From Kiritimatiellia bacterium (GTDB taxonomy: Bacteria; Verrucomicrobiota; Kiritimatiellia; CAIQIC01; Lenti-01): a stretch of 64,000 bases of DNA. Under the pieces are notes generated by a model, which ran no database searches, was not told the DNA's origin, and saw only the letters and a list, made by a program, of their open reading frames with translations. The position numbers were made by a program, and so were the translations under genes. Each line of letters starts with the position of its first letter. Positions within the stretch are counted from its first letter, which is position 1. Shown here in pieces: positions 9,371 through 47,635 of the stretch. The stretch is from positions 883 to 64,882 of the forward strand of contig JAFXQI010000026.1 of NCBI GenBank assembly GCA_017527155.1, given 5' to 3'.

Positions 9371-9811
9371 TCAGGAGAGCAACCCCTGCAACACCTGGCT
9401 CACCGTCTTGCCGTCGGCGCGGTGGGCGATCCGGGGCTTGAGGGCGGACATCAGTTTGCCCATTTCCTTCTTGGAGGTGATGCCGGTGGAGGCCATGGTT
9501 TCGCGGGCGAGGGCTTCGATTTCCTCGCGGGAGAGCGGCGCGGGGAGGTAGCGCTTGAAGAGGTCCATTTCGGCCTGTTCTTTCGCCGCCAGTTCGGGGC
9601 GGCCGCCTTTCTCGTAGAGGGCGATGGCGTCGGCGCGCTGCTTGACCGCTTTCTCCAGGCAGGCCAGCACGGCGTCGTCCGTCAGGTCCTTGCCGGCGTT
9701 GACGGTGGCGTCCTTGATTTGCGCGTGGATGCCGCGGAGGGCCGTCAGGGCGGCCGCGTCCTTGTTCTTCATGGCGGTCTTGATGTCGGAGAGGATGGTG
9801 TCGATGATCAT
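9371..9811 (-). CDS. GatB/YqeY domain protein
   Basis: 146 aa. DIKTAMKNKD...LTALRGIHAQIKD...AIALYEKGGRPELAAKEQAEMDLFKRYLP...MGKLMSALKP. Typical YqeY family. Confidence 0.9.
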   Translation of the reverse strand: MIIDTILSDIKTAMKNKDAAALTALRGIHAQIKDATVNAGKDLTDDAVLACLEKAVKQRADAIALYEKGGRPELAAKEQAEMDLFKRYLPAPLSREEIEALARETMASTGITSKKEMGKLMSALKPRIAHRADGKTVSQVLQGLLS

Positions 9812-31999: not shown

Positions 32000-32076
32000 G
32001 GGCCCTTAGCTCAGTCGGTCAGAGCGGGAGACTCATAATCTCTTGGTCGCAGGTTCAAGTCCTGCAGGGCCCACCA
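32000..32076 (+). tRNA. tRNA-Met (CAU), elongator type (could be tRNA-Ile2 if lysidinylated)
   Basis: GGGCCCT acceptor pairs with AGGGCCC. Anticodon loop CTCATAA. GGTTCAAGTCC T-arm. Encoded CCA. Lacks initiator features. Confidence 0.88.
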
Positions 32077-33435: not shown

Positions 33436-34656
33436 ATGCCCCGCAAGCCCGCCAAGCCGCACCCCGCGCCCGCCCCCGTCCCTCCCCTGGACGGATTCGA
33501 CGGCTTGGTCGGCCGCATCGCCGCGGCCTCCGACGCCTTGCGGGAAGGGGCGATGGCCGTCGTCAACCGCAGCGTCACCGCCCGCGCATGGCTCACGGGT
33601 TGCTACATCGTCGAATACGAGCAACACGGCCGCGACCGCGCGCAATACGGGGAGCGCCTGCTCGAACGGTTGGCGGAGCGGCTGGAAGACCGCGGACTTT
33701 CCGTCCCAAGCCTGAAAAAATTCAGGCAATTCTACTTGATGTACCCACGCCTTGCCGGCCCGATTTCCGCCTTTCTCGCCGGTCGGTTCGAAAAAGGACA
33801 GTCGGCGATTATCCAATTGCCTCCGGCCCGAACGGGAAAAGGAGAATCGGCGATTATCCCATCCGGCCCCCGTTCGTTGATTGCAGACGCGGACGGCATT
33901 CCGGAAGTGGACCCCGCGGTCCTTTTTTCACGTCTTTCGTTCACCCACGTCTTGCAGCTGCTTCCGCTCCCCGACCCCCTCCAGCGCACCTTCTACGCGT
34001 GGTCGGCCATCCGCGGCACGTGGAGCGTCCGCGAACTGCGCCGCCAGATCGCCAGCCGCTACTTCGAGCGCAGCGGCTGGAGCGGCGATCCCGCCCGGCT
34101 GGCGCGGCTGACCGACGCCCGTGCCGACACCGAAACGGCGCGCGAAAGCCTCCGTTCGCCGCACGTCTTCGAGTTCCTCGGCCTTGCGGCGAAGGACGTG
34201 TGGGAGGAGAGCGACCTCGAGCAGGCGGTGATCGACCACCTGCAGGCCTTCATGCTCGAGATGGGCCTGGGCTTCTGCTTCGAGGCGCGGCAGAAGAAAA
34301 TCCTGATCGACGGCCGCTACCACAAGATCGACCTCGTCTTCTACCACCGCATCCTCAAGTGCCACGTCCTCGTCGAACTCAAGGCCAAGCGGTTCGGCTA
34401 CGAAGACGCGGCGCAGCTGTCCGTCTACATGGCGCACTACCGCAAGCACGAGATGCAGCCGGACGACAACCCTCCGGTGGGCATCCTGCTGTGCACCGAA
34501 GCGGGGGCCGAGATGGCCGAATACGTCAGCACCTTCGTGGACCCGGGCCTGTTCGTGGCGAAGTACGAAGTGCAGCTTCCGCCGAAGGAGCGCATCGCCG
34601 CCTTCCTCAAGCGCGAGAACGCCCGCAACGCCCCGCCGGCGGGAGGTACGCCATGA
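33436..34656 (+). CDS. YhcG-like PDDEXK nuclease (DUF1016)
   Basis: FEFLGL...ESDLEQAVIDHLQAFMLEMGLGFCFEARQKKILIDGRYHKIDLVFYHRILKCHVLVELKAKRF. Only the last 406 codons of an 806-aa track ORF are credible. Confidence 0.88.
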   Translation: MPRKPAKPHPAPAPVPPLDGFDGLVGRIAAASDALREGAMAVVNRSVTARAWLTGCYIVEYEQHGRDRAQYGERLLERLAERLEDRGLSVPSLKKFRQFYLMYPRLAGPISAFLAGRFEKGQSAIIQLPPARTGKGESAIIPSGPRSLIADADGIPEVDPAVLFSRLSFTHVLQLLPLPDPLQRTFYAWSAIRGTWSVRELRRQIASRYFERSGWSGDPARLARLTDARADTETARESLRSPHVFEFLGLAAKDVWEESDLEQAVIDHLQAFMLEMGLGFCFEARQKKILIDGRYHKIDLVFYHRILKCHVLVELKAKRFGYEDAAQLSVYMAHYRKHEMQPDDNPPVGILLCTEAGAEMAEYVSTFVDPGLFVAKYEVQLPPKERIAAFLKRENARNAPPAGGTP

Positions 34657-34695
34657 CGGCGCGCCTCCGGCGGCCCGCCCGTGGCCTGCGGGGAG

Positions 34696-34820
34696 TTTTC
34701 CAACGATTGGAAAAAAACTTTCCAATCATTGGAAAAACCGGCGCGAATTTTCCAACCATTGGAAAAATATTTTCCAATCATTGGAAAACCGCCGAAAAAT
34801 TTTTCCAATCGTTGGAAAAC
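34696..34820 (+). repeat. AT-rich palindrome array B (5 copies)
   Basis: Units centred at 34705, 34727, 34757, 34779 and 34810 (spacing 22-30-22-31). Long identical runs shared with array C. Confidence 0.9.
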
Positions 34821-34859
34821 TCGCTTTGATCAATAACCCAGCAACAAAAGGACAACGCC

Positions 34860-35567
34860 ATGTCTGACAACCTCTCCACCGACCGCCCGCACAAATCTCC
34901 GCCATGGAAACGCATGCTCGGGATTGCCATTGGATGGCTTCTGGCCATGGGCGTCATGTTGTTGCTGCTGGACGGATGGTGGCGCGATGCACCATCGTTC
35001 GCCGTCATGTGGGGAACGATGGCCTTGTTGATGGCAGTTCCTTTCGCGGTGTCGGCGGCGTTGGTGTGGGGCGGGACGCGGTTGCGGCGCGGCGGCCGTC
35101 GCTGGGGAACGGCGCTCGTGGCCGTCGGGGTGGCCGGATTCATCGCGGCCGGTTCGATTCTGATTACCTTCGGGGGAAGTGCCGGGCCGTGGTGGGAGCG
35201 AATCGTGAAGCACGGGACGTTGCCGAACGGACGCGAATACGTCCTGTCCCAAGCCTGGGTAGACTGGTATGACGGCTACGACATCCGCATCTTCTTCCGC
35301 GAAGCGGACGGGAAATGGGTGTCCCTGTGCGGCGGCCACTGGTGGAAACCGTTCAGGCGCGTTACCGAAATCCAGCTGCATGAACCGGAGGGGGAGGTGG
35401 CCATCCGCACGACGCGCGGCGGCGAGTGGTTGCTGCGGGGGCATCGGACCGTCCACCCGGCGGAGATGACGCCGGAAGAACTCCATGCTTTCCACCGGGC
35501 GGAAATGGAAAATCTCCGCGCTGGGAAAACTCGCTCTGGAGAAGCGCCGCAAGGGGACGCACCATGA
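34860..35567 (+). CDS. A-family membrane protein 1 (4 TM plus soluble C-domain, unknown function)
   Basis: Paralogue of 38696-39382 (GTLPNGREYVLSQAWVDWYDGYDIRIFFREADGKW; HPAEMTPEELHAFHRAEM). Bracketed by arrays B and C. Confidence 0.65.
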   Translation: MSDNLSTDRPHKSPPWKRMLGIAIGWLLAMGVMLLLLDGWWRDAPSFAVMWGTMALLMAVPFAVSAALVWGGTRLRRGGRRWGTALVAVGVAGFIAAGSILITFGGSAGPWWERIVKHGTLPNGREYVLSQAWVDWYDGYDIRIFFREADGKWVSLCGGHWWKPFRRVTEIQLHEPEGEVAIRTTRGGEWLLRGHRTVHPAEMTPEELHAFHRAEMENLRAGKTRSGEAPQGDAP

Positions 35568-35650
35568 CCGCCCTCCTCCAACACCCCTTGCCCATCCCTT
35601 GCGCGGCGGCGCGGCAGGATGCCGCACCTCCCAGGGGGGGGCGGGGTTTC

Positions 35651-35717
35651 GGCCACAAAGAACACAAAGAGCACAAAGGGGGTTGGGAACTTTGTGCCCT
35701 TTGTGTTCTTTGTGGCC
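35651..35717. repeat. 28-bp-stem hairpin built from 9-nt units
   Basis: GGCCACAAAGAACACAAAGAGCACAAAG, 11-nt loop, CTTTGTGCCCTTTGTGTTCTTTGTGGCC (one mismatch). Confidence 0.8.
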
Positions 35718-35751
35718 AAAAAGGGATGGAGGGCGCGTCCAGGGGCGGAAA

Positions 35752-35910
35752 AATTTTCCAACCATTGGAAAAAAAGTTTCCAATCATTGGAAAAACCGGC
35801 GCGAATTTTCCAACCATTGGAAAAATATTTTCCAATCATTGGAAAAAACCGGAAAATTTTTTCCAATCATTGGAAAACCGGCGAAAAATTTTTCCAATCG
35901 TTGGAAAACT
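35752..35910 (+). repeat. AT-rich palindrome array C (6 copies)
   Basis: Units centred at 35763, 35785, 35815, 35837, 35868 and 35899 (spacing 22-30-22-31-31). Confidence 0.9.
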
Positions 35911-36286
35911 CGCCGCCCTCCTGCTCCTGCTGGCGGCGCCGTCGGCGCGCGCGGAAGACACGGTCTGGATGCCCGACCCCGCCGCCGTGGTCCGCTATAT
36001 GCGGACGGGCCCCTGGGACCGCACGGAGCGCGAAGTGCCGAAGGCCGAAGGAGACGGCATCATCGAGCTGCTGCGCGACGCCGAGCCGTTCCCGCGCCGC
36101 TATGTCCTCGAATCGAACCGGCATGACGGCGGGACGCTTTCCGGCGTCGCCCGCCTGTTTTACGGCGACGGCAATCTCTGGCGCATCATTTGGGAGGCTA
36201 ACAAAGACGCCGTTCCCGACCCGGACCGCCCCAAACCCGGCACCTCCCTCGTGATTCCCGCCCTGGCGGAAGGGGCCGCGCCGTGA
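35888..36286 (+). CDS. secreted LysM-domain protein (start codon unresolved)
   Basis: Signal-like KLAALLLLLAAPSARA and C-terminal LysM (TLSGVARLFYGDGNLWRIIWEANKDAVPDPDRPKPGTSLVIP). No ATG/GTG/TTG lies before the signal peptide. In-frame ATT 35888 and ATC 35897 lie inside array C; the nearest in-frame ATG is at 35726. Confidence 0.55.
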   Translation: MFPIVGKLAALLLLLAAPSARAEDTVWMPDPAAVVRYMRTGPWDRTEREVPKAEGDGIIELLRDAEPFPRRYVLESNRHDGGTLSGVARLFYGDGNLWRIIWEANKDAVPDPDRPKPGTSLVIPALAEGAAP

Positions 36287-36401
36287 CGGCAGGGCGGCAA
36301 AGGCGGCGTTTTCCCGTCCGATTGCAACCGAAGGCATTCGACGGCACGTGGTTTTCCCCGGCGTTCCCCTCTGGAATCCCATCCGCCCGGACTTCCAACC
36401 C

Positions 36402-36959
36402 ATGAAAAAACTCTTCCACATCCTCTTCGACACCGCTTGGGGGCCCGCCGCCGCCTGGGTTGTCGCCGGGGCCCTGGCAGGGGTTGCCTCCAATGCTTGC
36501 GCCGTTCATCCGGGCGACCCACGATCCACCATGCTCCTTGTCCTCGTCTGCCTGCCGCTTCTTTTGGCCGCCCTTGTCGCCTTGGGCGCGTTTGTCCGCT
36601 CGCTTCTGCGCCGGCGCTTTCTCCATGCCCTGCTCCAGATTCTCTTGATCGTTGCCGCCCAGGCGGCAACCGGCGTGGCCGTTGTCCCGTTGCTCGCTCC
36701 GGTCAACCGTTCGACTCCCATCCACACCCCGGACGCTCCACCCTCTCCTGACTCCTCCCTCCCCCCTTCCGCCCCTCCCGTCTCCCAGACATCCGAGTCC
36801 GCGCAGCGGCATTCGAGGCATTCTTGTAGATTCCGACCTCCCGCTTTCTTTCCGCAATTTGTCCGCCCGCAGGGCGCACCGCATCTTGTCACTTGTCACT
36901 TGTCACTGTGCCGGAGCCGCCCCCTTCCCGGGGTTGACGGAACAGGTCAAATGAACTAG
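36402..36959 (+). CDS. hypothetical membrane protein
   Basis: MKKLFHILF, then 3-4 hydrophobic helices and a Pro/Ser-rich tail that runs through a (CTTGTCA)x3 repeat at 36885-36906. The 3' end is uncertain. Confidence 0.4.
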   Translation: MKKLFHILFDTAWGPAAAWVVAGALAGVASNACAVHPGDPRSTMLLVLVCLPLLLAALVALGAFVRSLLRRRFLHALLQILLIVAAQAATGVAVVPLLAPVNRSTPIHTPDAPPSPDSSLPPSAPPVSQTSESAQRHSRHSCRFRPPAFFPQFVRPQGAPHLVTCHLSLCRSRPLPGVDGTGQMN

Positions 36960-36986
36960 TCTTCATGGCAGAAAGGAACGCCCCCC

Positions 36987-37265
36987 ATGACGGAACCCGC
37001 ACCTGCAATCGGATTGTTCGAAGCCAAGACGCATTTTTCGCGCATCGTCGACGACGTGGTCAACGGGCGCAGCGGCGCCGTGCCGGTGATGCGCCGCGGG
37101 AAACCGGCCGTGTACATCGTGGCGGACGCCTTCTACCGCCAGGCCACCGCCGGGGCCTCCCCGGGCATCCGCTACGGGCTGGCCAAGGGCAAATACCGGT
37201 TGGCGCGCGGCATCGACGCCGGCAACGCCGAAGTCCTCCGGCTCTTCCGCGGCGGTGAAGCGTGA
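36987..37265 (+). CDS. type II antitoxin, Phd/YefM-like
   Basis: 92 aa. GLFEAKTHFSRIVDDVVNG...PVMRRGKPAVYIV. Stop overlaps the toxin GTG start (GTGA). Confidence 0.75.
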   Translation: MTEPAPAIGLFEAKTHFSRIVDDVVNGRSGAVPVMRRGKPAVYIVADAFYRQATAGASPGIRYGLAKGKYRLARGIDAGNAEVLRLFRGGEA

Positions 37266-37648
37266 AGTACCTGCTGGACACGCACCTGCTGCTCTGGGCC
37301 ATCGTGGACGACCCCGCCTTCCCTCCGCGCGCCCGCAAGCTCCTGGCGGAAAGCGGCGCCGAGGCCTACTTCAGCGCCGCGTCCGTCTGGGAGGTGGCCA
37401 TCAAGAACGGCCTGCCCCACCGCTCGCTGGGGATACCGGCGGACGCCTTCCGGCGCGAATGCCTGGCGGCGGGCTTCCGCGAACTGCCCGTTGCGTCGCG
37501 CCACGCGGCGGCGGTCGAGTCGCTCCCGCACCGCCACGAGGACCCCTTCGACCGCATCCTCCTCGCCCAGGCCATCGAAGAAGACTGCACCTTCCTGACC
37601 CACGACACCCTCCTCCCCTCCTACGGCCCTCCCGTCCGCCGCGTGTGA
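37262..37648 (+). CDS. vapC: PIN-domain toxin
   Basis: MKYLLDTHLLLW, SVWEVAIK, HEDPFDRILLAQA, LTHD. The conserved acidic PIN residues are in the expected order. Confidence 0.85.
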   Translation: MKYLLDTHLLLWAIVDDPAFPPRARKLLAESGAEAYFSAASVWEVAIKNGLPHRSLGIPADAFRRECLAAGFRELPVASRHAAAVESLPHRHEDPFDRILLAQAIEEDCTFLTHDTLLPSYGPPVRRV

Positions 37649-37675
37649 CCCGTCCGCCCGGAAAACCGCAACACC

Positions 37676-38287
37676 TCAGTACCGCCCTCCATATTCCTTC
37701 CGCGCTTCGGCCGTCCATTTGGCGACGAAACCGCCCTTTGCATCCGTGTAGGCATCCCGGTCGTGCTCATGCCGCTTCCACAGGCGGAGCTTCAGCGATT
37801 CATATTCCTTCGCGGCGTCGGGGTGCTCGTTCAGGTAATCGCGGAAGTACAGCTCGCCGTTGTCCCCGGCATGCCGCAGGTGGATATGGTACACCTTGTC
37901 CGTAAACCCGTTTGGGGTATATCCCTTGTTGAGCGAGATCCTGGCCGCCCCGGCGGACATGACGGCAAAGCCGTTCCGTTCCAATATCCGGGCCAGGTCC
38001 TCCAATCCGCCGCTTTCGGGCACTTCGACCAGCACATCGACAATGTTCTTTGCCCATATCCCTTTGATCGCCGTGCTCCCGATGTGGCTGATCCTGCGGA
38101 TGGGACGTCCTGCGAACAGCTTCTTCAGCAGCATTTCCATCTCCCTGTAGTCCTCCGCCCACTTGCCATCAGGCTCGACAAGGACGATCGGAAACAGCTC
38201 CCACAATTCTTCCAACGACATCTCCGACAATTCTTTTCCCATGGCTGCCAACTCCCCAAGCGCCGATTTGCCGTCGGCCCTTTGCAT
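37676..38287 (-). CDS. GrpB family protein (UPF0157 nucleotidyltransferase fold)
   Basis: ISHIGSTAIKGIWAKNIVDVLVEV...YHIHLRHAGDNGELYFRDYLNEHPDAAKEYESLK. Visibly lower GC than neighbours. Alternative start at 38242. Confidence 0.85.
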   Translation of the reverse strand: MQRADGKSALGELAAMGKELSEMSLEELWELFPIVLVEPDGKWAEDYREMEMLLKKLFAGRPIRRISHIGSTAIKGIWAKNIVDVLVEVPESGGLEDLARILERNGFAVMSAGAARISLNKGYTPNGFTDKVYHIHLRHAGDNGELYFRDYLNEHPDAAKEYESLKLRLWKRHEHDRDAYTDAKGGFVAKWTAEARKEYGGRY

Positions 38288-38460
38288 GCAAATTCCGTAG
38301 AGCCACCAGTGCTCTTCACCGCCTTCCGCTTATATCCCCGCCCCCCTTGCCCCGCAAGAAAAAGAAGGTGCCCCGAATGCCCTTTCCTTTGGGCGGATTG
38401 GAACGGGATTTTCCAAGCTCACCCCATCCACGTCCCGCCCGCGCAGCGGGCGCACCGCAC

Positions 38461-38540
38461 TGAAAGGGTGAAAGGTTGAGGGAGTACGTTGAAGGGCCAT
38501 TCTTCGACTTTTCAACCTTTCGACTTTTCAACCTTTCACC
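38461..38540. repeat. hairpin with 8-nt micro-tandem arms, copy 1
   Basis: TGAAAGGGTGAAAGGTTGAGGG...GTTGAAGGG, loop, TCTTCGAC TTTTCAAC CTTTCGAC TTTTCAAC CTTTCACC. Confidence 0.75.
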
Positions 38541-38695
38541 CGTCGGGGCGGCCGCCGCGACGCGCGTTTCCCGTTGTCTCGCGCCGCGCCTTCTGCTAGA
38601 CGTTCCCTTGCAACCACACCTCTACGAACCAGAAGGGAACAAGGAGTGAGAACCATGGAGATGAAAAGCGGAAAAATGAAGCGGAAGGTGACGCC

Positions 38696-39382
38696 ATGAC
38701 GGCGGGACGGAAGTGGCTCTTGGGGGGATTGCTCGCGGTCGGCGCGGCGGCGGCGTTTTGCGGGCTTGCGTACTGGTTCTGGCGCGACGCGGTGTCGGTA
38801 CTCGCCCTGGTTTGGGTGCTTTGGATCCTGCTCGGCATCCCCGTCGCCTTGTGCGGATGCCTCTACTGGGCCGGACGCCGGCGCATCGGCTCCGGACGCC
38901 GCGGCGGACGGGCGATGGTCGGCGCGGCCCTGGCGGGCGGCGTGCTGGCCACCGCATTTTTCGGCTATTACCTCTGGATTGCCGGGCCGTGGTACAACGG
39001 CATCGTCCTGCGCGGGACGGCTCCGGACGGCGGCGAATACATCCTCTCCCAGGCGTGGACCGACTGGTTCGACGGCTACGACATCCGCCTCTTCCACCGC
39101 CAGCCGGACGGACAATGGCTCTCGCGCTGGGGCGGCTACAATTGGGAGTCGTATTACCGCGGCTACGAAATCGAGTGGAGCGGCCGCGCCCCCGTGATCC
39201 GGCTGGCCGACGGCAGCGAGCGCGGCTTCAACCACCGTCCCGACCGCCAAACCACCCATCCCGCTTTCCTTTCGCCCGACGACCTCCACGCCCTCCACCT
39301 CGCCGAAATGCGCACCGACCGCTCCATCCCCGGCATCTGGCACATCCTGAACAATGCGGATTCGGAAAGAGGCGCGCAATGA
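38696..39382 (+). CDS. A-family membrane protein 2
   Basis: 4 TM helices. GTAPDGGEYILSQAWTDWFDGYDIRLFHRQPDGQW; HPAFLSPDDLHALHLAEM. Paralogue of 34860-35567. Confidence 0.65.
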   Translation: MTAGRKWLLGGLLAVGAAAAFCGLAYWFWRDAVSVLALVWVLWILLGIPVALCGCLYWAGRRRIGSGRRGGRAMVGAALAGGVLATAFFGYYLWIAGPWYNGIVLRGTAPDGGEYILSQAWTDWFDGYDIRLFHRQPDGQWLSRWGGYNWESYYRGYEIEWSGRAPVIRLADGSERGFNHRPDRQTTHPAFLSPDDLHALHLAEMRTDRSIPGIWHILNNADSERGAQ

Positions 39383-39837
39383 AAAAGGAACGGCCCCGAA
39401 TGCGGATCAGATAAGCTCCGCCCGCCCATGGAACAAGCCCGCCCGCTCCCCGTTCTCCCCTGCCTGTGGCGCAAAACACGGAGCGTGCGGAGAAAGGAGA
39501 CACGGAGCTTTTCCAGGGAGGAGCTTCGCACTTCCAAAAACGTCCTCTCAGGAATAAGGGGCCAGGCCCGAACTTCCGCACTCCAGCCGTTCCTTTGTTT
39601 TCTTTTGTCCTTTTGTGCAAAAGCGCTCTCCAAGCCCTCCGCGTCTCCGCGTGGGTTTTCCTTCCCGAATCCCTCCCGCTCCCTTGTCGGACTTGGCGGA
39701 CTTTGAGTGGGACATTCTTCCGCCCTCCATCCGCCATGGCGCGGCAAGATGCCGCACCCCCGGAAGTGGCGCGGAAGCTTCCGGGCATGCATCGCGGGGA
39801 TTTCGGCGGGGCGGCTTCCAGGTAGGGCGCTGGATGT

Positions 39838-39878
39838 GAGATTACGGAAAACATTGGGCTTTTCGCTTGTTTTCCGCT
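39838..39878 (+). promoter_or_regulatory. UE family copy (5' half) upstream of RND gene
   Basis: GAGATTACGGAAAAC-N7-TTTTCG...TTTTCC. No ATGAA box; it is followed by the large 8-nt-unit hairpin. Confidence 0.4.
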
Positions 39879-39930
39879 TTCCAGGCGCCCCGCGGGCCTC
39901 CCGCCCGCGCCCCGACTGCACATCCGCGAA

Positions 39931-40070
39931 GGGTTGAAAGGTTGAAGGGGTGAAAGGTTGAAGGGTTGAAGGGTTGAGGGAATGGGCCGTCCTTCATCTT
40001 TTCAACCTTTCCACCTTTCAACCTTTCAACTTTTCAACCTTTCAACCTTTCAACCTTTCAACCTTTCACC
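39931..40070. repeat. large asymmetric hairpin with 8-nt micro-tandem arms, copy 2
   Basis: Left arm has ~6 units of GTTGAAGG/GTTGAAAG (39931-39980). Right arm has 10 units of CTTTCAAC (39991-40070). Ends 110 nt upstream of the RND start. Confidence 0.85.
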
Positions 40071-40179
40071 GGGCTTCGTGCTTTGCACATTCGCCCTTGC
40101 GGGGGGAGGGGGAAAATGGGTAGGATGGGGGGTCTCCGCGCAATGCGGGGGTAGTGTCTCCAAGGAAAGGATGTCATCC

Positions 40180-43100
40180 ATGTTCAGCAAAATCTTCATC
40201 GACCGGCCGAGGCTCGCGTTCGTGTGTTCGATCGTGCTCATGCTCGCGGGGGCCATCTGCGTGACGAAGCTGCCCGTGGAGGAGTACCCCGACATCGCGC
40301 CGCCCCAGATCTACGTGATGTGCAACTACCCCGGCGCCACTTCCCAGACGGTCCTCGACACGGTCGGCACCGCCATCGAGTCGCAGATCAACGGCGTCGA
40401 CGGCCTGCTCTACTACTCCGCCAACGCCGAGGACAACGGCAATTTCTTCGCCCAGGTCGATTTCCAGCCCGGCACCGACACCGACATCGCGATGGTCAAC
40501 GTCCAGAACGCCGTCAAGCGCGCCGAGCCCTCCCTCCCCGAGGAGGTCACCCGCCAGGGCGTCAACGTCAACAAGCGCTCCAGCGACATCCTCTGCGTGT
40601 ACGCGTTCATGACCGACGGCTCGCACATGAGCTCGATGGAGCTGAACAACTACGTCTCGAAGAACATCGCCGACGCGCTCTCCCGCGTCGACGGCGTCGG
40701 CTCCGTCACCGCCATGGGCGACACCTACGCGATGCGCATCTGGCTCGACCCCGTCCGCATGGACGGCCTCGGGGTCACCGTCGCCGAGGTCAACGCCGCG
40801 GTCTCCTCGCAGAACCTGCAGGCGACGGCCGGCAGCGTCGGCGGCGAGCGCGCGAACCCCTACGTGCAGTACCGCATCAGCACGATGGGCCGCCTGCAGA
40901 CGCCGGAGCAGTTCGAGGACATCGTGGTCCGCACGGGCGCGGACGGCAGCGTGCTGCGCATCCGGGACATCGGCCGCGCGGAGCTGGGGGCGCAGATGAC
41001 GTCGTTCATCGGCGAGTACAACGGCCGCAACGCGGTGGCGCTGATGGCCTACCGCGACACCGGCGCCAACGCCGTCGGCACCATCGCCCGCGTCAAGGCG
41101 GAGCTGGAAAGCTGGCGGGAGCGCCTGCCGGAGGGCGTCGATTTCCAGATCACCTACGACCCGTCGGAGTCGGTGGTGGTCTCGCTCAAGGAGACGGCCT
41201 TCACGCTGGTGCTGACGCTGCTGCTGGTGATCCTCATCACATACCTCTTCCTCCAGGACTGGCGCGCGACGATCGTGCCGGCGGTGGCGATCCCCGTCTC
41301 GCTGCTGGGCGCGTTCCCGTTCGTGTACGCGCTGGGGTTCTCGCTGAACACGCTGACGCTCTTCGGCCTGGTGCTGGTGATCGGGTCGCTGGTGGACGAC
41401 GCGATCGTCGTCGTCGAGAACTGCCAGTCCCTCATGCAGCGCGAAAAGCTCTCCGCCCGCGCCGCCGCCATCAAGTGCATGGAGCAGATCACCGGCGCCA
41501 TCATCGCGACGACCCTCGTCACCGTCGCCTGCTACGTCCCGCTCGCGTTCTACGGCGGCATGGTCGGTACCATCTACGTGCAGTTCGCCGTGACGATGTG
41601 CGTGTCGCTCTGCATCTCGACCTTCGTGGCCATGACCCTCTCGCCGGCCCTCTGCTCCCTCGTGCTGCGGCCGCCGCGCGAGAAGCCCGCGAAGATCTTC
41701 GCCCCCTTCAACCTCCTCGTGGACGGCTCGCGCAAGTTCAGCAACCTGTTCGTCGGGTTCCTCGTGCGGCGGAGCGTGTTCGCGGTCGCGATCCTGGCGC
41801 TCTTCGTCGCGGGCATCTGGGGCGTGTCCAAGCTCGTCCCCGGCTCCTTCCTGCCCGAAGAAGACAAGGGCATCGTCTTCTGCGACATCGGCCTGCCCGA
41901 AGGCGCCTCCCTCGAGCGCACCATGGACTCCGTCCGCGCCTTCCGCGACAAGACCGCCATGGTCCCCGAAGTCGACCGCACCATGGCCATCGCCGGCTTC
42001 GGCATGATCAACGGCGCCGGCGAATCCTCCGGCATGCTCATGGCCGGCCTCAAGCACTGGGACGACCGCGCCGGCAAGGGCCAGGACGCCGCCTCCCTCA
42101 AGAACAAACTCATGGGCCTGGGCATGACCCCCATCGGCTCCGACCCCGACTCCCTGGCGGCGCAGACCGACGCGCGCGTCATCTGCTTCACCCCGCCCGC
42201 CATCCAGGGGCTGGGCATGACCGGCGGCCTCTCCCTCTACCTCGCGAGCGACGGCTCCCTCAGCTCCTCCGAACTCGCCGCGGCCGCCGACAAACTCGCC
42301 GTCGACATCCAGCAGCTCACCGATTCCAAGGGCCGCAAGCTCGCCGCCTCCGCCAACAACTCCTTCGTCGCCAACACCCCCAAACTCTACCTCGACGTCG
42401 ACCGCGAAAAAGCCATCTCCCTCGGCATCAACATCTCCCAGCTCTTCTTCACCCTCCAGTCCCAGCTCGCCAGCTACTACATCAACGACTTCAACATGAT
42501 GGGCGAAGCCTTCTACGTCAAGATGCAGTCCGAGCAATCCTCCCGCACCAGCGAAGAATCCGTCCTCGCCCTCCAGATCCCCACCTCCTCCGGCGGCAGC
42601 GTCCCCCTCTCCACCATCGCCACCCTGCGGCACGAAAAGAGCTCCCGCGTCCTCCAGCGCTACAACAAGATGAACGCCGCCAAACTCACCGCCCAGTGCG
42701 CCCCCGGCGTCCCCACCAAGACCCTCATGGACGCCATCGAAACCATCCCCCTCCCCAAAGGCTGCTCCATCGAATGGACCGACATGTCCTTCCAGGAAAA
42801 ACAGAACCAGGGCCAGATCGTCTCCCTCATGGCCCTCGCCCTTTTGTTCGCCTTCCTCTTCCTCGTCGCCCAGTACGAGAGCTGGTCCATCCCCGTCCCC
42901 GTCATGCTCACCGTCGCCACCGCCACCTTCGGCGCCATGCTCGGCATCTGGGCGTGCAGCGGCAGCTGGGGCCTCGCCCACGGATTCGGCAGCGCCGGGT
43001 CCCTCTCCATCTACGCCCAGCTCGGCCTCGTCATGCTCATCGGCCTCTCCGCCAAGAACGCCATCCTCATGGTCGAATTCTCCAAACAGGAACGCGAAGC

Positions 43101-44763
43101 CGGCCAGCCCATCCCCGAAGCCGCCCGCAACGGCTTCAACATGCGCTACCGCGCCGTCCTCATGACCGCCTGGAGCTTCATCTTCGGCGTCATTCCCCTC
43201 GTCTTCGCCTCCGGCGCCGGTTGCAACAGCCGAATCGCCATCGGCGTCACCACCTGCACCGGGATGCTCATGGCCACCTTCGTCGGCATCCTCCTGACCC
43301 CCGGCCTGTACGCCTTCTTCCAGACCCTCCGCGAAGGCGTCAAACACCTCATCCACATGAAAACCTCCGTCGAGATCGCCGCCGAACACCGCGCCGAAGA
43401 AGCCGCCCGCGCCAAAGCCCGCGCCGCCGCCAAGACCCTCGCCCTCCTGCTGATTGCCGGCATCACCGCCATCCTCGCCACCGGCTGCGGAACCATCCGC
43501 ATGGCCCGCGACGCCCAGGCCACCGACACCGAACGCACCCTCCGCTGGACCGAGACCCCCTTCGCCGAACAAACCCCCATCCCCGTCGAAGCCCTCGCCC
43601 AGTGGGCCCGCACCAACGTCCCCGCCGTCGTCCAGGCCCGCGAAGACGTCGTGCAGGCCCAGATCGCCCTCCGCTCCATCAAAGCCTCTTATATCCCTGT
43701 CATCGACGGAAGCATCGCTTATACCTATGCTTCCGCCAACATCGACCCCCACGACACCTCTTGGGACGGCGACGGCATCTGGGACGGCAAACTCACCCTC
43801 AACTGGCTCCTCTTCGACTTCGGCCGCACCCCGGCCGCCACCCGGCAAGCCGTCGCCCGCCTCGCCGCCGCCGACCAGGCCGCGCGCGCCGCCGAACAGA
43901 CCGCCGCCTACAACGTCCGCGCCGCCTGCTTCGAACTCCTGCGCAAGACCGAACTCCACGCCGTCGCCCAGGCCAACGCCGCCGCCTACAAAGACCACCT
44001 CGAACAGACCCAGCACCGCTACGACGTCGGCGCCGTCACCAGCTACGAAGTCTCCAAGGCCCGCGTCGATTCCGAGAACGCCCGCCTCGCCGAAATCGTC
44101 GCCGCACACGGCGTCCAGACCGCCCGCGCCGGCCTCGCCCTCGCCCTCGGCCTCGCCGAAAACCCCGACATCGACCTCCAGCCCCTCGAAACCGCCCCCG
44201 ACACCCGCACCCTCGACGACCTCTGGGCCATCGCCCAGACCAACGCCCCATCCCTCGCCGCCCTGCGCGCCGCCGCCGACGCCGCCAAAAACTACGTCGA
44301 CTGGACCATCTGCGACCTCTACCCCAAACTCTCCCTCACCCTCACCTTCGACGCCCAAGGCGACAGCACCCCGCTTTTGTGGAACTACGCCGCCGTCCCC
44401 GCCGCCGCCCAGACCCTCTTCGCCGGCCGCGCCAAGACCCGCCAGATCGAGACCGCCGTCTCCCAACTCCGCGCCGCCCGCAGCAAACTCGCCGCCGCCG
44501 AACAGACTCTCTACAACACCCTCCTGAACGCCACCCTTTCCGCCCAAAGCGCCCAGGACGCCCTCGACGTCGCCCAAAGCGCCGCCGCCGCCGCCCAGGA
44601 AAACTTCGACATCGTCTCCAGCCGCTACGATGTCGGCAAAGCCTCCGTCCTCGAACGCACCGACGCCCAAGTCGCCCTCTCCCGCGCCCAAGCCGAAGTC
44701 GTCACCGCCCGCTACAACCTCCTCGACACCCGCATCCTCATCACCCGCCTCATCGGCGAGTGA
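40180..44763 (+). CDS. RND (AcrB-type) transporter continuous in frame with TolC/OprM-type outer-membrane factor
   Basis: AAGGAAAGG RBS then ATG 40180. MFSKIFIDRPRLAFV... 12-TM RND. No stop occurs before the OMF segment (lipobox-like LATGC plus TolC-type repeats), so the ORF is 1527 codons. The track start 39982 lies inside the 8-nt repeats. Confidence 0.85.
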   Translation: MFSKIFIDRPRLAFVCSIVLMLAGAICVTKLPVEEYPDIAPPQIYVMCNYPGATSQTVLDTVGTAIESQINGVDGLLYYSANAEDNGNFFAQVDFQPGTDTDIAMVNVQNAVKRAEPSLPEEVTRQGVNVNKRSSDILCVYAFMTDGSHMSSMELNNYVSKNIADALSRVDGVGSVTAMGDTYAMRIWLDPVRMDGLGVTVAEVNAAVSSQNLQATAGSVGGERANPYVQYRISTMGRLQTPEQFEDIVVRTGADGSVLRIRDIGRAELGAQMTSFIGEYNGRNAVALMAYRDTGANAVGTIARVKAELESWRERLPEGVDFQITYDPSESVVVSLKETAFTLVLTLLLVILITYLFLQDWRATIVPAVAIPVSLLGAFPFVYALGFSLNTLTLFGLVLVIGSLVDDAIVVVENCQSLMQREKLSARAAAIKCMEQITGAIIATTLVTVACYVPLAFYGGMVGTIYVQFAVTMCVSLCISTFVAMTLSPALCSLVLRPPREKPAKIFAPFNLLVDGSRKFSNLFVGFLVRRSVFAVAILALFVAGIWGVSKLVPGSFLPEEDKGIVFCDIGLPEGASLERTMDSVRAFRDKTAMVPEVDRTMAIAGFGMINGAGESSGMLMAGLKHWDDRAGKGQDAASLKNKLMGLGMTPIGSDPDSLAAQTDARVICFTPPAIQGLGMTGGLSLYLASDGSLSSSELAAAADKLAVDIQQLTDSKGRKLAASANNSFVANTPKLYLDVDREKAISLGINISQLFFTLQSQLASYYINDFNMMGEAFYVKMQSEQSSRTSEESVLALQIPTSSGGSVPLSTIATLRHEKSSRVLQRYNKMNAAKLTAQCAPGVPTKTLMDAIETIPLPKGCSIEWTDMSFQEKQNQGQIVSLMALALLFAFLFLVAQYESWSIPVPVMLTVATATFGAMLGIWACSGSWGLAHGFGSAGSLSIYAQLGLVMLIGLSAKNAILMVEFSKQEREAGQPIPEAARNGFNMRYRAVLMTAWSFIFGVIPLVFASGAGCNSRIAIGVTTCTGMLMATFVGILLTPGLYAFFQTLREGVKHLIHMKTSVEIAAEHRAEEAARAKARAAAKTLALLLIAGITAILATGCGTIRMARDAQATDTERTLRWTETPFAEQTPIPVEALAQWARTNVPAVVQAREDVVQAQIALRSIKASYIPVIDGSIAYTYASANIDPHDTSWDGDGIWDGKLTLNWLLFDFGRTPAATRQAVARLAAADQAARAAEQTAAYNVRAACFELLRKTELHAVAQANAAAYKDHLEQTQHRYDVGAVTSYEVSKARVDSENARLAEIVAAHGVQTARAGLALALGLAENPDIDLQPLETAPDTRTLDDLWAIAQTNAPSLAALRAAADAAKNYVDWTICDLYPKLSLTLTFDAQGDSTPLLWNYAAVPAAAQTLFAGRAKTRQIETAVSQLRAARSKLAAAEQTLYNTLLNATLSAQSAQDALDVAQSAAAAAQENFDIVSSRYDVGKASVLERTDAQVALSRAQAEVVTARYNLLDTRILITRLIGE
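43357..44763 (+). CDS. alternative reading: OMF lipoprotein initiated at internal in-frame ATG
   Basis: MKTSVEIAAEHRAEEAARAKARAAAKTLALLLIAGITAILATGC then a TolC family body. No SD-like sequence within 15 nt upstream of ATG 43357. Confidence 0.4.
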   Translation: MKTSVEIAAEHRAEEAARAKARAAAKTLALLLIAGITAILATGCGTIRMARDAQATDTERTLRWTETPFAEQTPIPVEALAQWARTNVPAVVQAREDVVQAQIALRSIKASYIPVIDGSIAYTYASANIDPHDTSWDGDGIWDGKLTLNWLLFDFGRTPAATRQAVARLAAADQAARAAEQTAAYNVRAACFELLRKTELHAVAQANAAAYKDHLEQTQHRYDVGAVTSYEVSKARVDSENARLAEIVAAHGVQTARAGLALALGLAENPDIDLQPLETAPDTRTLDDLWAIAQTNAPSLAALRAAADAAKNYVDWTICDLYPKLSLTLTFDAQGDSTPLLWNYAAVPAAAQTLFAGRAKTRQIETAVSQLRAARSKLAAAEQTLYNTLLNATLSAQSAQDALDVAQSAAAAAQENFDIVSSRYDVGKASVLERTDAQVALSRAQAEVVTARYNLLDTRILITRLIGE

Positions 44764-45386
44764 CCCCTCCCATCTACCAAGGCACCGTCCTCTTCTGCCG
44801 CCGCTTCCTGCCGGTGCGCGGGGACCGCACCGTCGACCAGATGACGCAGGCCGCCCGCAGCTGCAAACAGAACATCGCCAAAGGCAGCGCCGCCTCGGGC
44901 ACCTCCCGCGAAACCGAGATCAAGCTCACCAACGTCGCCCGTGCCACCCTCGACGAACTCATGGAAGACTACCTCGACTGGCTCAAGGCCCACGGCGCCG
45001 CCGAGTGGCCCGCCGACGATCCCCGCCGCCTGGCCGCCCGCGACTTCGCCCGGAAGCACGCCGATTGGGAAGACTGGCTCCCCATCTTCGAGACCCGCCC
45101 CGCCGAAACCGCCGCGAACCTCATGCTGACCCTCTGCCACCAGACCCGCTACATCCTCGACAAGATGCTCGCCTCCCAGGAAGAAGACTTCCGCCTCCAC
45201 GGCGGCGTCCGCGAGCGCATGCACGCCGCCCGCACCGCCACCCGCTCCGCCGACTGGGACAAAGCCCTCCACTCCCGCCTCTCCACCGCCGCCACCCCCG
45301 CAGCCCTCTCCGCCCTTGCCCGCAAGATCAAGCAAGCGGTGGACCGCTCCGTCGAAAGCATCCGCCGCCGCAACGGCTGGGGCTGA
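44760..45386 (+). CDS. four-helix-bundle suffix-domain protein (23S rRNA IVS protein-related)
   Basis: YQGTVLFCRRFLPVRGDRTVDQMTQAARSCKQNIAKGSAASGTSRETEIKLTNVARATLDELMEDY. GTG 44760 overlaps the pump stop (GTGA). It is the terminal part of a long alternate-frame ORF. Confidence 0.7.
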   Translation: MTPPIYQGTVLFCRRFLPVRGDRTVDQMTQAARSCKQNIAKGSAASGTSRETEIKLTNVARATLDELMEDYLDWLKAHGAAEWPADDPRRLAARDFARKHADWEDWLPIFETRPAETAANLMLTLCHQTRYILDKMLASQEEDFRLHGGVRERMHAARTATRSADWDKALHSRLSTAATPAALSALARKIKQAVDRSVESIRRRNGWG

Positions 45387-45387
45387 C

Positions 45388-45466
45388 GGGACATCCGGGA
45401 CCACCGGGACCACCGGGACTGGAGCGCCCTCGTCCCGGTTGTCCCGTCCGTCCCGGTGGTCCCGTC
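45388..45466. repeat. hairpin with 9-nt micro-tandem arms
   Basis: GGGACATCC GGGACCACC GGGACCACC GGGAC, loop, GTCCCGGTT GTCCCGTCC GTCCCGGTG GTCCCGTC. Starts 2 nt after the preceding stop. Confidence 0.8.
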
Positions 45467-45547
45467 AGCCTCCCCTCCCCGCTTTGGGGTTGAACGCGGC
45501 CGCGCGGCGGTGTAGAAAGAAACGGCTACGGAAAAGGAAACGGCAAC

Positions 45548-47290
45548 ATGGCGGAAGACAAAGGCAAAACCAAAATCCTGGTCCTCGACGACGAGCGCCT
45601 CATCCGGCTCACCATCGCCGCCAAGCTCCGCCGCCTCGGTTACGAAGCCGTCGCCGTCGCCTCCGTCCCGGAAGCCATGGCCCTGCTCAAGCGCGACGAC
45701 TTCCGCCAGTTCCGCGCCATCATCACCGACATCGTGATGGAAGGCATGGACGGGTTCGTCTTCCGCGACATCGTCCGCGGCCTCGACGCGACGATCCCCA
45801 TGTTCTTCATGACCGCGCTCGACCCGGAGGAGGGCGGCGGCTTCCTCAAGCGCATCCTGGAAGACGCCAACAGCCACTACCTGCCCAAGTCCGTCCGCGC
45901 GGAAGTCCTGCTCAAGCGCGTGGAAAGCATCGTGGGGTCGCGCCGGGTCGAACGCTTCATCGAGCGCCAGGCGGCGGAGGCGAAGCAGGCGCTCGCGCTG
46001 GCGGCGCAGGTGCAGCGCAGCATGCTGCCGGTCCGCGCGCTGATGCTGGAACACGGCTTCTACACGACCTGGTGGAAGCCTCAGGAGGAAGTCTCCGGCG
46101 ACCTCTACGAAGCAGTCCCCTTCGGCCACGGCTGCTGGCTGTTCGTGCTGGGCGACGTCCAGGGCCACGGCGTGAGCGCCGCGCTGGCCATGACCGCGGT
46201 CCAGTCCCAGCTCCGCCAGCTCGGCCACGACGACGGCGCCCCGCGCATGGGGCCGGCGGACGTCGCGAACCTCCTCCAGCGGTTCTTCCGCGAGAACCTC
46301 GCCGATGTCTCCTACATGACGGCCCTCATCTGCATCCACCGCCCGCTCGAAAGCACGGTCGAATGGATGAGCTGCGGCGCGCCCGACCTGGTGGTGCTCG
46401 ACCCCGCCCGCGGGGGGGCGGTCGACGTCAACCCGTCGCACCTGGGCGGCCTTCCGATCGGGCTGATGCCGGACACGGTCTACAGCCCCGAGGAAGTCGT
46501 CACCACCCCGCTCACGCCCACGGCCGTCTGCGTGGCCCACACCGACGGCGTGCTCGACATCGCGCGCGATCCCGAAGGCCTCGAACCGCTCCCCGACGAA
46601 GACCGCGAGCGCATCCGCGACGACCTCATCCTGGACGCCCGCCTCGACAGCTCCATCGTCGCCGCCCCCTACAAGTTCATGGCCGCCTGCGAAGACCTCG
46701 GCTACGCCCACTTCGGCGACGACGTCACCGAAGTCCTCTTCGGCGCCCGCCTCCACCGCGAAGGCGTGTTCGACGCCGCCGTCGCCGTCAACTCCGAGGA
46801 CATCGACCGCACCGCCCGCGAGATCGAGGCCTGGTGCACCGGTCGCGGATGGGACGCGATCCTCTCGACCCGCGTCCAGCTCGTCTTCGAGGAAAAGCTG
46901 ATGAACCTGCACGACCACGGCTTCGACTACCCCCAGCGCCTGCGCGAAGCCGTCTGCGTCCGCCTGCGCGAACGCGAACGCAACGGGCACCGCGAGGCCG
47001 AACTGACCGTATGGGACTGCGGGACGCCCGACCCGAGCCTCCTCGTCGCCGCCGGCAGCACCGACGTCGCCTTCGACCTGGCCAACCAGGTCTGGAGCGG
47101 GCGCGGGCGCGGGCGCCTGATGGTCCGGGAGCTGTGCACCGGCGTCGAGCGCAACCGCTACGGCGTGCTCAACGAAACCATCTACCACATCCCCTTCGAC
47201 CCCGACGACACCGACCCCAACGCCCCCGTCCCCGCCCCCGTCCCCCCCGCCCCCGAGCCCCCCGAAATCGACCCCCCGTCCAATCCCTGA
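45548..47290 (+). CDS. response-regulator receiver / PP2C (SpoIIE-type) phosphatase / RsbW-like ATPase-fold fusion protein
   Basis: REC: KILVLDDERL...IITDIVMEGMDG...LPKS. PP2C: EVSGDLYEA...FVLGDVQGHGVSAAL...HTDGV. C-terminal HATPase-like region; Pro-rich tail. Confidence 0.85.
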   Translation: MAEDKGKTKILVLDDERLIRLTIAAKLRRLGYEAVAVASVPEAMALLKRDDFRQFRAIITDIVMEGMDGFVFRDIVRGLDATIPMFFMTALDPEEGGGFLKRILEDANSHYLPKSVRAEVLLKRVESIVGSRRVERFIERQAAEAKQALALAAQVQRSMLPVRALMLEHGFYTTWWKPQEEVSGDLYEAVPFGHGCWLFVLGDVQGHGVSAALAMTAVQSQLRQLGHDDGAPRMGPADVANLLQRFFRENLADVSYMTALICIHRPLESTVEWMSCGAPDLVVLDPARGGAVDVNPSHLGGLPIGLMPDTVYSPEEVVTTPLTPTAVCVAHTDGVLDIARDPEGLEPLPDEDRERIRDDLILDARLDSSIVAAPYKFMAACEDLGYAHFGDDVTEVLFGARLHREGVFDAAVAVNSEDIDRTAREIEAWCTGRGWDAILSTRVQLVFEEKLMNLHDHGFDYPQRLREAVCVRLRERERNGHREAELTVWDCGTPDPSLLVAAGSTDVAFDLANQVWSGRGRGRLMVRELCTGVERNRYGVLNETIYHIPFDPDDTDPNAPVPAPVPPAPEPPEIDPPSNP

Positions 47291-47326
47291 TTCCACCAAC
47301 CGCCCACCACCGATAGGAGCCATCCG

Positions 47327-47635
47327 ATGAAACCCTGCTGCAAAGCCTTCCTCTCCGAGCAATTCGGCGGCGACGAAGACATCGTCGCCGAAATCTACGC
47401 CGAATACGTCACGTCCCTCCACGCCAAGGCCCAGGAAGCCGCCGACCGGCTGGCCGCCGCCGACTGGCAGCGCCTCGACGAAACCGCCCATGCCATCAAG
47501 GGCAACGCCCTCGTCGCCGGCGACACCGAGACCGCCGACGCCGCCATCGCCCTGCGCGGCGCCTCCAAGCTCGGCGACTCCGCCAAGGCCGGCGAACTCG
47601 TCGCCCGCATCCGCGAACTCGCCGCCCAGCTCTGA
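47327..47635 (+). CDS. HPt (histidine phosphotransfer) domain protein
   Basis: 102 aa, helical. ETAHAIKGNALVAGD is the H-x2-KG phosphohistidine motif. AGGAG RBS. Confidence 0.8.
   Translation: MKPCCKAFLSEQFGGDEDIVAEIYAEYVTSLHAKAQEAADRLAAADWQRLDETAHAIKGNALVAGDTETADAAIALRGASKLGDSAKAGELVARIRELAAQL

Follow-up and report, generated by a model that had tools for sequence, protein, structure and literature searches.

An RND permease and an outer-membrane factor encoded in one uninterrupted frame in a Kiritimatiellia bacterium, with a predicted internal lipoprotein signal at the joint

Textbook tripartite efflux pumps are assembled from three separately made proteins. In a 64,000-nucleotide (nt) stretch of DNA from a rumen Kiritimatiellia bacterium (GenBank assembly GCA_017527155.1, contig JAFXQI010000026.1, positions 883 to 64,882 of the forward strand; hereafter the window), two of these parts, a resistance-nodulation-division (RND) permease and a TolC-like outer-membrane factor (OMF), are encoded by one frame of 1527 codons without a stop at 40180-44763 of the forward strand. 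The fusion is almost certainly genuine. Its product is probably processed as a polyprotein at a lipobox cysteine, Cys1103, and on balance we favor the view that RND::OMF is a bacterial polyprotein straddling two membranes, in which Sec, Lgt and signal peptidase II (LspA) would use an internal signal, one translation thereby giving pump and channel at a fixed 1:1 ratio. A preliminary description of this DNA had already proposed a single uninterrupted frame, and this is confirmed by its one coding frame, by the presence of both ACR_tran and OEP domains and by its occurrence on six contigs.

One coding frame for pump and channel

The open frame extends from 39982 to 44763 on the forward strand, and its likely start is the ATG at 40180, from which the product opens with MFSKIF, the residues at which homologues also begin. 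A Shine-Dalgarno-like AAGGAAAGGA (40162-40171, forward strand) is found in the upstream-sequence listing 8-17 nt 5' of this ATG. Third-position G+C in the single frame is 0.96 in the RND core, 0.86 in the tail and signal peptide, and 0.89 in the OMF part. At 67% G+C, the window DNA commonly contains long open reading frames (ORFs), and over this region two further frames stay open beyond 1500 codons; the long ORFs at 40174-44691 (reverse strand) and 40224-45386 (forward strand) were rejected as high-GC artefacts because this coding signature is absent from them. A promoter and terminator scan of 39300-45600 found nothing exceeding shuffle expectation.

Residues 1-1052 (40180-43335, forward strand) form an RND permease core of the HAE1 type with 12 transmembrane (TM) helices. 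Pfam ACR_tran covers residues 2-1047 (E 6e-274; model positions 1-1020 of 1021), the NCBIfam model TIGR00915 gives 994.9 bits for the N-terminal part against a cut-off of 940.35, and CmeB, MexB and AcrB from the PDB align end to end with residues 1-1052 (E ~1e-213). Proton-relay motifs are present as VDDAIV (405), AKNAIL (958) and RYRAVLMT (989), within LVDDAIVVVEN (D406/D407), SAKNAILMVEF (K959) and MRYRAVLMT; by motif, we take these to be the equivalents of the AcrB relay residues D407/D408 (TM4), K940 (TM10) and R971/T978 (TM11). The HAE1 family consists of separate polypeptides ending in the cytoplasm after TM12; here the chain runs on into a 13th hydrophobic segment and the OMF.

The mature OMF, residues 1103-1527 (425 residues, 45.8 kDa; 43486-44763 of the forward strand with the stop codon), has a complete TolC/OprM fold, with two Pfam OEP repeats from residue 1144 (E 9e-45) and an alignment of TolC residues 8-404 with the C-terminal part of the fused protein. 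An AlphaFold model of residues 990-1527 contains a complete OMF protomer of 4 strands and 6 long helices, whose predicted local distance difference test score (pLDDT) exceeds 90 in most of the helical body and is 48-60 in and around the β-strands. Comparison by Foldseek gave template modeling scores of 0.64-0.77 over ~415-430 columns against TolC, OprM, CmeC and CusC, and in sequence the mature OMF is 62-74% identical to stand-alone OMFs. The OMF part scores below the curated cut-offs of both TIGR01844 (TolC type; 114 versus 225.15 bits) and TIGR01845 (NodT type; 70.9 versus 210.05 bits), and it is a divergent member of a Kiritimatiellae-specific OMF clade. Both family halves are complete in one coding frame.

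The position of the joint can be read from unfused relatives. On the related Kiritimatiellae contigs L002 and L003, the unfused RND homologues are 1099-1103 residues long, share a 'GMKTALEIAE...' tail and finish '...REGVKHMIGMKTALEIAEQRRAEDAASRAAAE...', and their DNA is alignable with the window as far as 43434. For this reason MKTSVEIAAEHRAEEAARAKARAAAK belongs to the cytoplasmic tail of the pump, and the ATG at 43357-43359, the codon of Met1060, is a conserved RND codon that sits within the tail; 'MKTSVEIAAEHRAEE...' is likewise the conserved cytoplasmic tail of this RND clade and not the start of the OMF. The clade-specific tail spans residues 1053-1085 (GVKHLIHMKTSVEIAAEHRAEEAARAKARAAAK; 43336-43434, forward strand). 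Such tails of 40-45 residues, rich in Ala, Glu and Arg, occur in this Kiritimatiellae clade (L002, L003) and are absent from AcrB, MexB and CmeB. The preliminary description had ended the RND part near ...KHLIH at residue 1059 and read what follows as a basic linker; the boundary is in fact ~26 residues further downstream and the supposed linker is the conserved tail of the permease itself. It had also considered the ATG at 43357 as a start for the OMF and a TGA at 43358 in the +1 frame as a hidden RND stop. The former is not the ancestral start, as it is an RND-tail codon conserved in unfused homologues and the start of the OMF has been deleted, and the latter carries no meaning, since unfused RND tails contain the same ATGAAG.

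Homology of stand-alone OMFs to the window begins at 43466-43482, and the true joint lies between 43434 and 43466 (...ARAAAK/TLALLLIAGITAILATGC/GTIR). Across it the window reads ...ARAAAK-TLALLLIAGITAILATG-C-GTIRMARDAQ, in which residues 1086-1102 (TLALLLIAGITAILATG; 43435-43485, forward strand) are the predicted signal-peptide core and lipobox, and a predicted 13th TM helix; AlphaFold also predicts this segment to be helical. The next codon (43486-43488, forward strand) is that of Cys1103, the predicted lipidated +1 Cys, with the putative LspA site between G1102 and C1103. In alignments this residue falls on the lipobox Cys, both in the unfused orthologues inspected and in the fused variants, and the 17-residue core corresponds in position to the N-terminal lipoprotein signal peptides of ~100 unfused orthologues. 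The PROSITE pattern PS51257, {DERK}(6)-[LIVMFWSTAG](2)-[LIVMFYSTAGCQ]-[AGS]-C, matches at Cys1103, and the core follows RAKARAAAK, the basic end of the tail, which would serve as the n-region of the predicted internal signal peptide. The OMF has kept the hydrophobic core and lipobox Cys of its signal peptide while losing its own Met and n-region. The list of in-frame codons has no ATG, GTG or TTG between 43357 and the Cys codon, the nearest start codon to Cys1103 being that of Met1060, 43 residues upstream. Lipoprotein signals are otherwise N-terminal, with their Cys among the first ~35 residues of the precursor.

That the two genes are truly separate in the cell, and joined only by a sequencing or assembly error or in a decaying pseudogene, is scarcely credible. 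Such a reading could point to the stand-alone genes of more than 90 orthologous OMF clusters and to the source of the window-clade sequences, all of which are metagenome contigs or metagenome-assembled genomes. However, gene calling gives the identical 1527-residue protein, in one piece, on 6 public contigs of at least 3 ENA assemblies. The same junction recurs across different studies, in 12 contigs besides the window (13 sequences in all) and in at least 6 sequence variants with 73-100% junction identity, whose indels at the junction are all multiples of 3. In a one-genome-per-species collection, the fusion is uninterrupted in 3 genomes: a sheep-rumen Kiritimatiellae genome (98% nt identity), a cattle-rumen genome (95% nt identity; an in-frame insertion lengthens its linker by 6 nt) and a goat-rumen Kiritimatiellae genome (81% nt identity, 73% amino acid identity at the joint). 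A metagenome scan added 6 further fused contigs with additional junction variants. Both halves are under purifying selection, as the ratio of nonsynonymous to synonymous substitution rates (dN/dS) between the window and the relative at 81% nt identity (L007) is 0.16 for the RND and 0.20 for the OMF; for the tail and signal peptide it is 0.46, a pattern typical of a signal peptide altering its sequence while keeping its features. Each of six divergent window-clade variants of the junction retains basic residues, 13-20 hydrophobic ones, [LA][STA]G and the Cys. Third-position G+C is continuous over the joint, and a fused homologue is found in a closed isolate genome. The copies on independent contigs, the exclusively in-frame indels and the dN/dS values rule out the error or pseudogene that the preliminary description had allowed for. 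It had also held that a stop or frameshift at the junction of orthologues would tell against the fusion; none is found in the fused relatives, and unfused orthologues with separate genes do exist.

Fused and unfused relatives

Approximately 100 orthologous OMFs, 61-73% identical and mostly 436-469 residues long, are encoded by separate genes and open with a classical lipoprotein signal peptide, such as MKDTKLILLLSAAALLAGC/TTVREARRAQ (slash, cleavage site). One unfused relative, L019 (70% identical), has an RND tail ending in ...AAEDAMMGK and a stop codon, a 29-nt spacer with GGAGG, and then ATG-MNYTKYIVIPAFLALAGC/GTVRDAREAQ, and is presumed to keep the ancestral layout of RND, short spacer and OMF. 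From such a layout, an ancestral deletion that started ~15 codons before the end of the RND tail, took in the stop and the spacer (ribosome-binding site included) and reached into the opening codons of the OMF signal peptide would have left RND(1-1085), the hydrophobic core with its lipobox, and the OMF. In a neighbor-joining tree of the mature OMF, the window group and its fused relatives at 73-75% identity cluster and adjoin one unfused OMF, and P0121, which represents another fused lineage (52% identical, 22 cluster members, a different linker), branches outside that cluster. As P0121 falls outside the window group, the fused relatives and their unfused neighbor, the fusion probably arose at least twice in this Kiritimatiellae family, a conclusion to be held as loosely as befits a simple distance tree.

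A different rearrangement is seen in L002, which is unfused and has the order adaptor, OMF, RND. Its OMF signal peptide, MFSKIFIDRPRLAFVCSIALMLVCGC/ATV, copies the first 22 codons of the adjoining RND gene (8001-8065 versus 9434-9498; 62 of 65 nt identical), the RND-derived copy being joined directly to the lipobox. The family thus has a second way of rebuilding an OMF export signal from pump sequence.

Fusions also occur in other lineages. Residues 700-1527 were used as a HMMER query against 1.84 billion cluster representatives, and the best 150 matches were considered; among these are ten proteins of 1372-1507 residues, and the nine inspected non-truncated ones carry both halves. Fused homologues include WFB35000.1 from Kiritimatiellota bacterium B12222, an isolate with a closed 4.43-Mb genome (CP120722.1), a 1504-residue protein from Acidobacteriota/Bryobacteraceae with 10 cluster members, and a 1494-residue protein from Muribaculaceae. 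NodT-type OMF halves predominate among the distant fusions, whose identity to the window protein is only 27-37%. WFB35000.1, MEP7362399.1 (Acidobacteriota) and MDE6452705.1 (Muribaculaceae) have the same succession of RND, short basic linker, hydrophobic core, lipobox Cys and OMF; however, they are only 27-32% identical to the window protein. Because their linkers differ and their OMF halves are mostly of the NodT type, these three are probably independent fusions, and an independent origin is probable for most of the distant fusions.

A lipobox Cys stands at the joint in 11 of the 13 fused proteins checked (three of the window clade included), and either a lipobox or a signal peptidase I site in 12. 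Read up to the predicted cleavage site, the junctions are ...RKTKRFVPTSLLIIGLVLLCGC in P0124, ...SKKGTGKSKLEHLSSLLVLLTLLPFLGGC in P0131, ...LGRRKVALAPQAAMLVLAALTLSGC in P0180, ...RIRRRKASHIAAVAAIAVAASGMSSC in P0191, ...KKNAVKMITSALLLIALGAC in P0194, ...KKRDLLRGAAGKIGAVVLCALFLGSC in P0243 and ...LQGC in P0253. P0133 (L047, 5001-9422) has a site of the signal peptidase I type, ...KKISAIIPLILVLALSAPAFS/EE, its joint reading LALSAPAFS/EETEE without a cysteine, which shows that non-lipoprotein OMFs of the TolC type have also been fused to pumps. The remaining protein, P0122 (1428 residues, a single contig), lacks the N-terminal region of the OMF and has neither a lipobox nor a signal peptidase I site; it was treated as aberrant and left out of the support. 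In 4 of the 5 distant fusion operons examined an adaptor gene directly precedes the fused gene, the fifth contig ending just upstream, and in 3 of those four a TetR or MarR regulator gene lies in front.

Processing of the fused product

In the proposed course of events, the ribosome would make the 12-TM pump and then its cytoplasmic tail. The hydrophobic segment, its basic side in the cytoplasm, would insert N-in/C-out as a 13th helix with Cys1103 at the periplasmic face, an orientation expected because the C-terminus of AcrB-type permeases is cytoplasmic, as is that of AcrB. The 13th helix would start Sec-dependent export of the 425-residue OMF part, much as the two periplasmic loops of the pump itself, of ~300 residues each, are exported. 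Lgt would then add diacylglycerol to Cys1103 and LspA would cut between G1102 and C1103, leaving the spent signal peptide on the pump as an extra C-terminal helix. Two products are predicted, a 118-kDa pump with a 13th helix and the 45.8-kDa lipoprotein channel, and the latter, once freed, would reach the outer membrane and trimerize into the exit duct. Together with a separately encoded adaptor (32285-33427), pump and channel would form an ordinary tripartite efflux machine, for which the fusion would guarantee equimolar and co-localized synthesis of the protomers (3:3 per complex).

The principal argument that the signal is used is its retention. A cleavable export signal has been kept at the joint in one lineage after another, and in the window clade through heavy sequence turnover. 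The 13th helix or internal lipoprotein signal that the preliminary description saw in the hydrophobic stretch and LATGC is in this way supported by independent assemblies, by divergent species and by fusions in other phyla, with cleavage itself a prediction.

Several points weigh against processing at Cys1103. PS51257 also matches two cysteines in RND helices (451 and 1015), so the pattern alone is weak evidence. Position -3 of the lipobox is Ala in the window, L007 and L018, where Leu, Val or Ile is usual. In the AlphaFold model, a single unbroken helix runs from the tail through the hydrophobic core into the start of the mature part, which says nothing on cleavage. To our knowledge, there is no natural Lgt/LspA substrate with a signal peptide after 12 TM helices. 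As at least 90 orthologous OMF clusters are unfused, the fusion is not required for function. Finally, Met1060 is strictly conserved in all fused window-clade variants, so that some additional internal initiation is possible.

This last point leads to the possibility that the OMF precursor is made mainly by internal initiation at the ATG at 43357 with a 26-residue n-region, the full-length product being incidental or degraded. It is the sole in-frame start codon between TM12 and the lipobox, the distant fusions P0191, P0131 and P0121 keep what appears to be the original OMF Met, and ~40% of window genes are without a Shine-Dalgarno motif, which is therefore not obligatory. Yet most unfused RND tails conserve this Met just as well, which makes it a residue of the permease, and in P0124 and P0243 the fused chain contains no Met from TM12 to the Cys. 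As the preliminary description had noticed, no Shine-Dalgarno-like motif lies at a usable distance from this ATG; the sole AAGG is at -23, whereas more than half of the called window genes have a motif at about -9 to -18. Furthermore, the fused chain is made regardless, as every ribosome that translates the pump continues into the OMF because there is no stop codon. Internal initiation as the main source of the OMF is unlikely.

If, on the other hand, the chain were never cut, the 13th helix would stay in place and the OMF would work tethered to the pump. The topology is self-consistent up to the periplasmic face and nothing in the sequence compels cleavage; the tryptic peptide spanning the joint of an uncleaved chain is TLALLLIAGITAILATGCGTIR. 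A permanent fusion is nevertheless very improbable. OMFs of the OprM type are held in the outer membrane by the lipid on their N-terminal Cys, and the assembled tripartite pump is ~320 angstroms long, with the OMF N-terminus at the outer-membrane/equatorial region. The 38 residues from the Cys to the first TolC-equivalent residue are too short to reach from the inner membrane to the equatorial domain of the OMF, and Lol and β-barrel assembly machinery (BAM) delivery act on free proteins; from the established AcrAB-TolC and OprM structures, an uncleaved tether is unlikely for these reasons. The mature N-terminal segment is also the same as in the free lipoprotein orthologues, and the cleavable site persists, through heavy turnover of the surrounding sequence, in all six window-clade variants and in 12 of the 13 fused proteins checked. 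There is, finally, a slim chance that the chain is cut by signal peptidase I or another protease, in place of Lgt and LspA. The AxA-type site of P0133, which has no Cys, and the atypical -3 position of the window lipobox fit such a protease, but the Cys is invariant in the window clade and in all lipoprotein orthologues, and no AxA motif is found in its place. Lipidation and LspA cleavage at Cys1103 remains the preferred reading.

Genomic setting, precedents and significance

The presumed third pump component is encoded upstream on the same strand as the fused gene, in a 380-residue adaptor (membrane-fusion protein) gene at 32285-33427 (forward strand; Pfam HlyD_D23/HlyD_3). Its N-terminus has a signal of the signal peptidase I type (..ASAVA/QDG), an identical adaptor gene on L008 matches BSH_RND, HH_MFP_RND, Beta-barrel_RND and RND-MFP_C, and the window adaptor is 82% identical to that of the unfused operon on L002. 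A tRNA-Met (CAT) at 32000-32076 lies ~200 nt 5' of the adaptor gene, after an alanine racemase gene (30821-31960), and Rfam found two tRNAs only in the whole window. Unlike L002, L011, L012 and L047, the window has no MarR or TetR regulator gene preceding its adaptor gene. Adaptor and pump genes are ~6.7 kb apart with accessory genes between them, and a Pfam search of the ORFs flanking the fused gene found no adaptor gene immediately adjacent.

Gene calls and Pfam place YhcG/DUF1016, several hypothetical proteins, a 92-residue ORF with a PIN toxin (36987-37648) and GrpB (37676-38242) in this accessory block (~6.5 kb; 33436-39923), where codon bias, measured as codon-position G+C, is weaker than in the flanks. 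On L003, two HTH-HipA toxin-antitoxin pairs and an FGE-sulfatase gene lie between the RND and OMF genes, and toxin-antitoxin cassettes seem often to have inserted into these efflux operons. Between the block and the fused gene, Tandem Repeats Finder identified inverted arrays of an 8-nt repeat, (GGTTGAAG)n and (TTTCAACC)n, at 39928-40068 (15 matches versus 0.02 expected), which form a near-perfect hairpin of ~140 nt, ~110 nt 5' of the start codon (-88.8 kcal/mol, z = -10.3). A third short array of the unit (TTTCAACC) is present at 38503-38541, 1.4 kb upstream, and L005 has a related repeat copy downstream of its fused gene. The hairpin could act as a terminator or insulator, be a repeat element or mark an insertion boundary.

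Downstream, a 208-residue ORF at 44760-45386 (forward strand) has a GTG start that overlaps the stop of the fused gene (GTGA). The identical contigs include this ORF among their called genes; Pfam gives no match to it, and the fused genes of L005-L007 are not followed by a conserved copy. Directly downstream at 45548-47635 (forward strand) are a fusion protein of a response regulator, PP2C (SpoIIE) and HATPase_c_2 (580 residues) and then a small Hpt-like protein, which together look like a partner-switching or phosphorelay module.

Compared with AcrAB-TolC of E. coli, MexAB-OprM of P. aeruginosa and CmeABC of C. jejuni, the window has the same three types of part, adaptor gene included, and its OMF resembles OprM and CmeC in being a lipobox protein. 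It differs from these canonical pumps in that permease and OMF are one polypeptide, with no stop, spacer or separate OMF start, in that the adaptor gene is displaced ~6.7 kb upstream, and in the extra 33-residue charged tail and predicted 13th helix of the RND. The nearest mechanistic precedent known to us is FbcH of Bradyrhizobium japonicum, a cytochrome b-c1 polyprotein that was reportedly found by Thony-Meyer and co-workers in 1989-1991 to be cleaved at an internal signal peptide. There too, a polytopic inner-membrane protein with a cytoplasmic C-terminus is said to be followed by an internal signal peptide and a periplasm-facing partner from one complex; however, FbcH is said to be cut by signal peptidase I and both products to stay in the inner membrane, whereas the window protein has a lipobox and one product must reach the other membrane. 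The nearest biochemical precedent comes from engineered internalized prolipoprotein signals, which were reportedly modified and processed, to go by the title of a 1985 paper by Hayashi, Chang, Chang, Giam and Wu (J Biol Chem 260:5753). Such signals are, as in the window, not N-terminal, but they are artificial and follow soluble N-terminal extensions and not a 12-TM transporter. A natural fusion within the RND superfamily is SecDF of Thermus thermophilus and Bacillus, which likewise joins two partners of one membrane machine; there, both partners are in the inner membrane and stay joined, and neither a change of compartment nor cleavage is needed (PMC8277102).

The preliminary description knew of no described RND-OMF fusion. 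Searches of open-access papers and preprints aimed at natural RND-OMF fusions or internal lipoboxes found no description, nor did looking for relevant terms in the opening 300,000 characters (of ~748,000) of a 2021 Chem Rev review of tripartite pumps. To this extent the statement stands, but the fusion is not unique, as many lie in public databases as RND permeases. Pipelines annotate them plainly as 'RND permease', and IMG has 'HAE1 family protein/NodT family ... lipoprotein'. As the databases already contain the proteins and IMG names both halves, the novelty is in recognizing and explaining the architecture, not in the sequences. The annotation also has a practical consequence: because genes of ~1500 codons are labeled only 'RND permease', the genomes that carry them appear to lack an OMF for that pump.

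The fusion bears on how cells match the amounts of pump and duct and on how the duct finds its pump. Its evident benefit is 1:1 co-synthesis of two partners that each form trimers, and a natural single chain of pump and duct shows that stoichiometric co-synthesis is selectable. It also predicts that Lgt and LspA can work on a signal peptide that lies behind 1100 residues of a polytopic membrane protein. The system is experimentally tractable, as a cultured Kiritimatiellota isolate with a closed genome carries such a gene. If true, an Lgt/LspA biogenesis route after a 12-TM transporter would be undescribed, and it appears to have arisen repeatedly within this Kiritimatiellae family and, probably as separate events, in Acidobacteriota and Bacteroidota.

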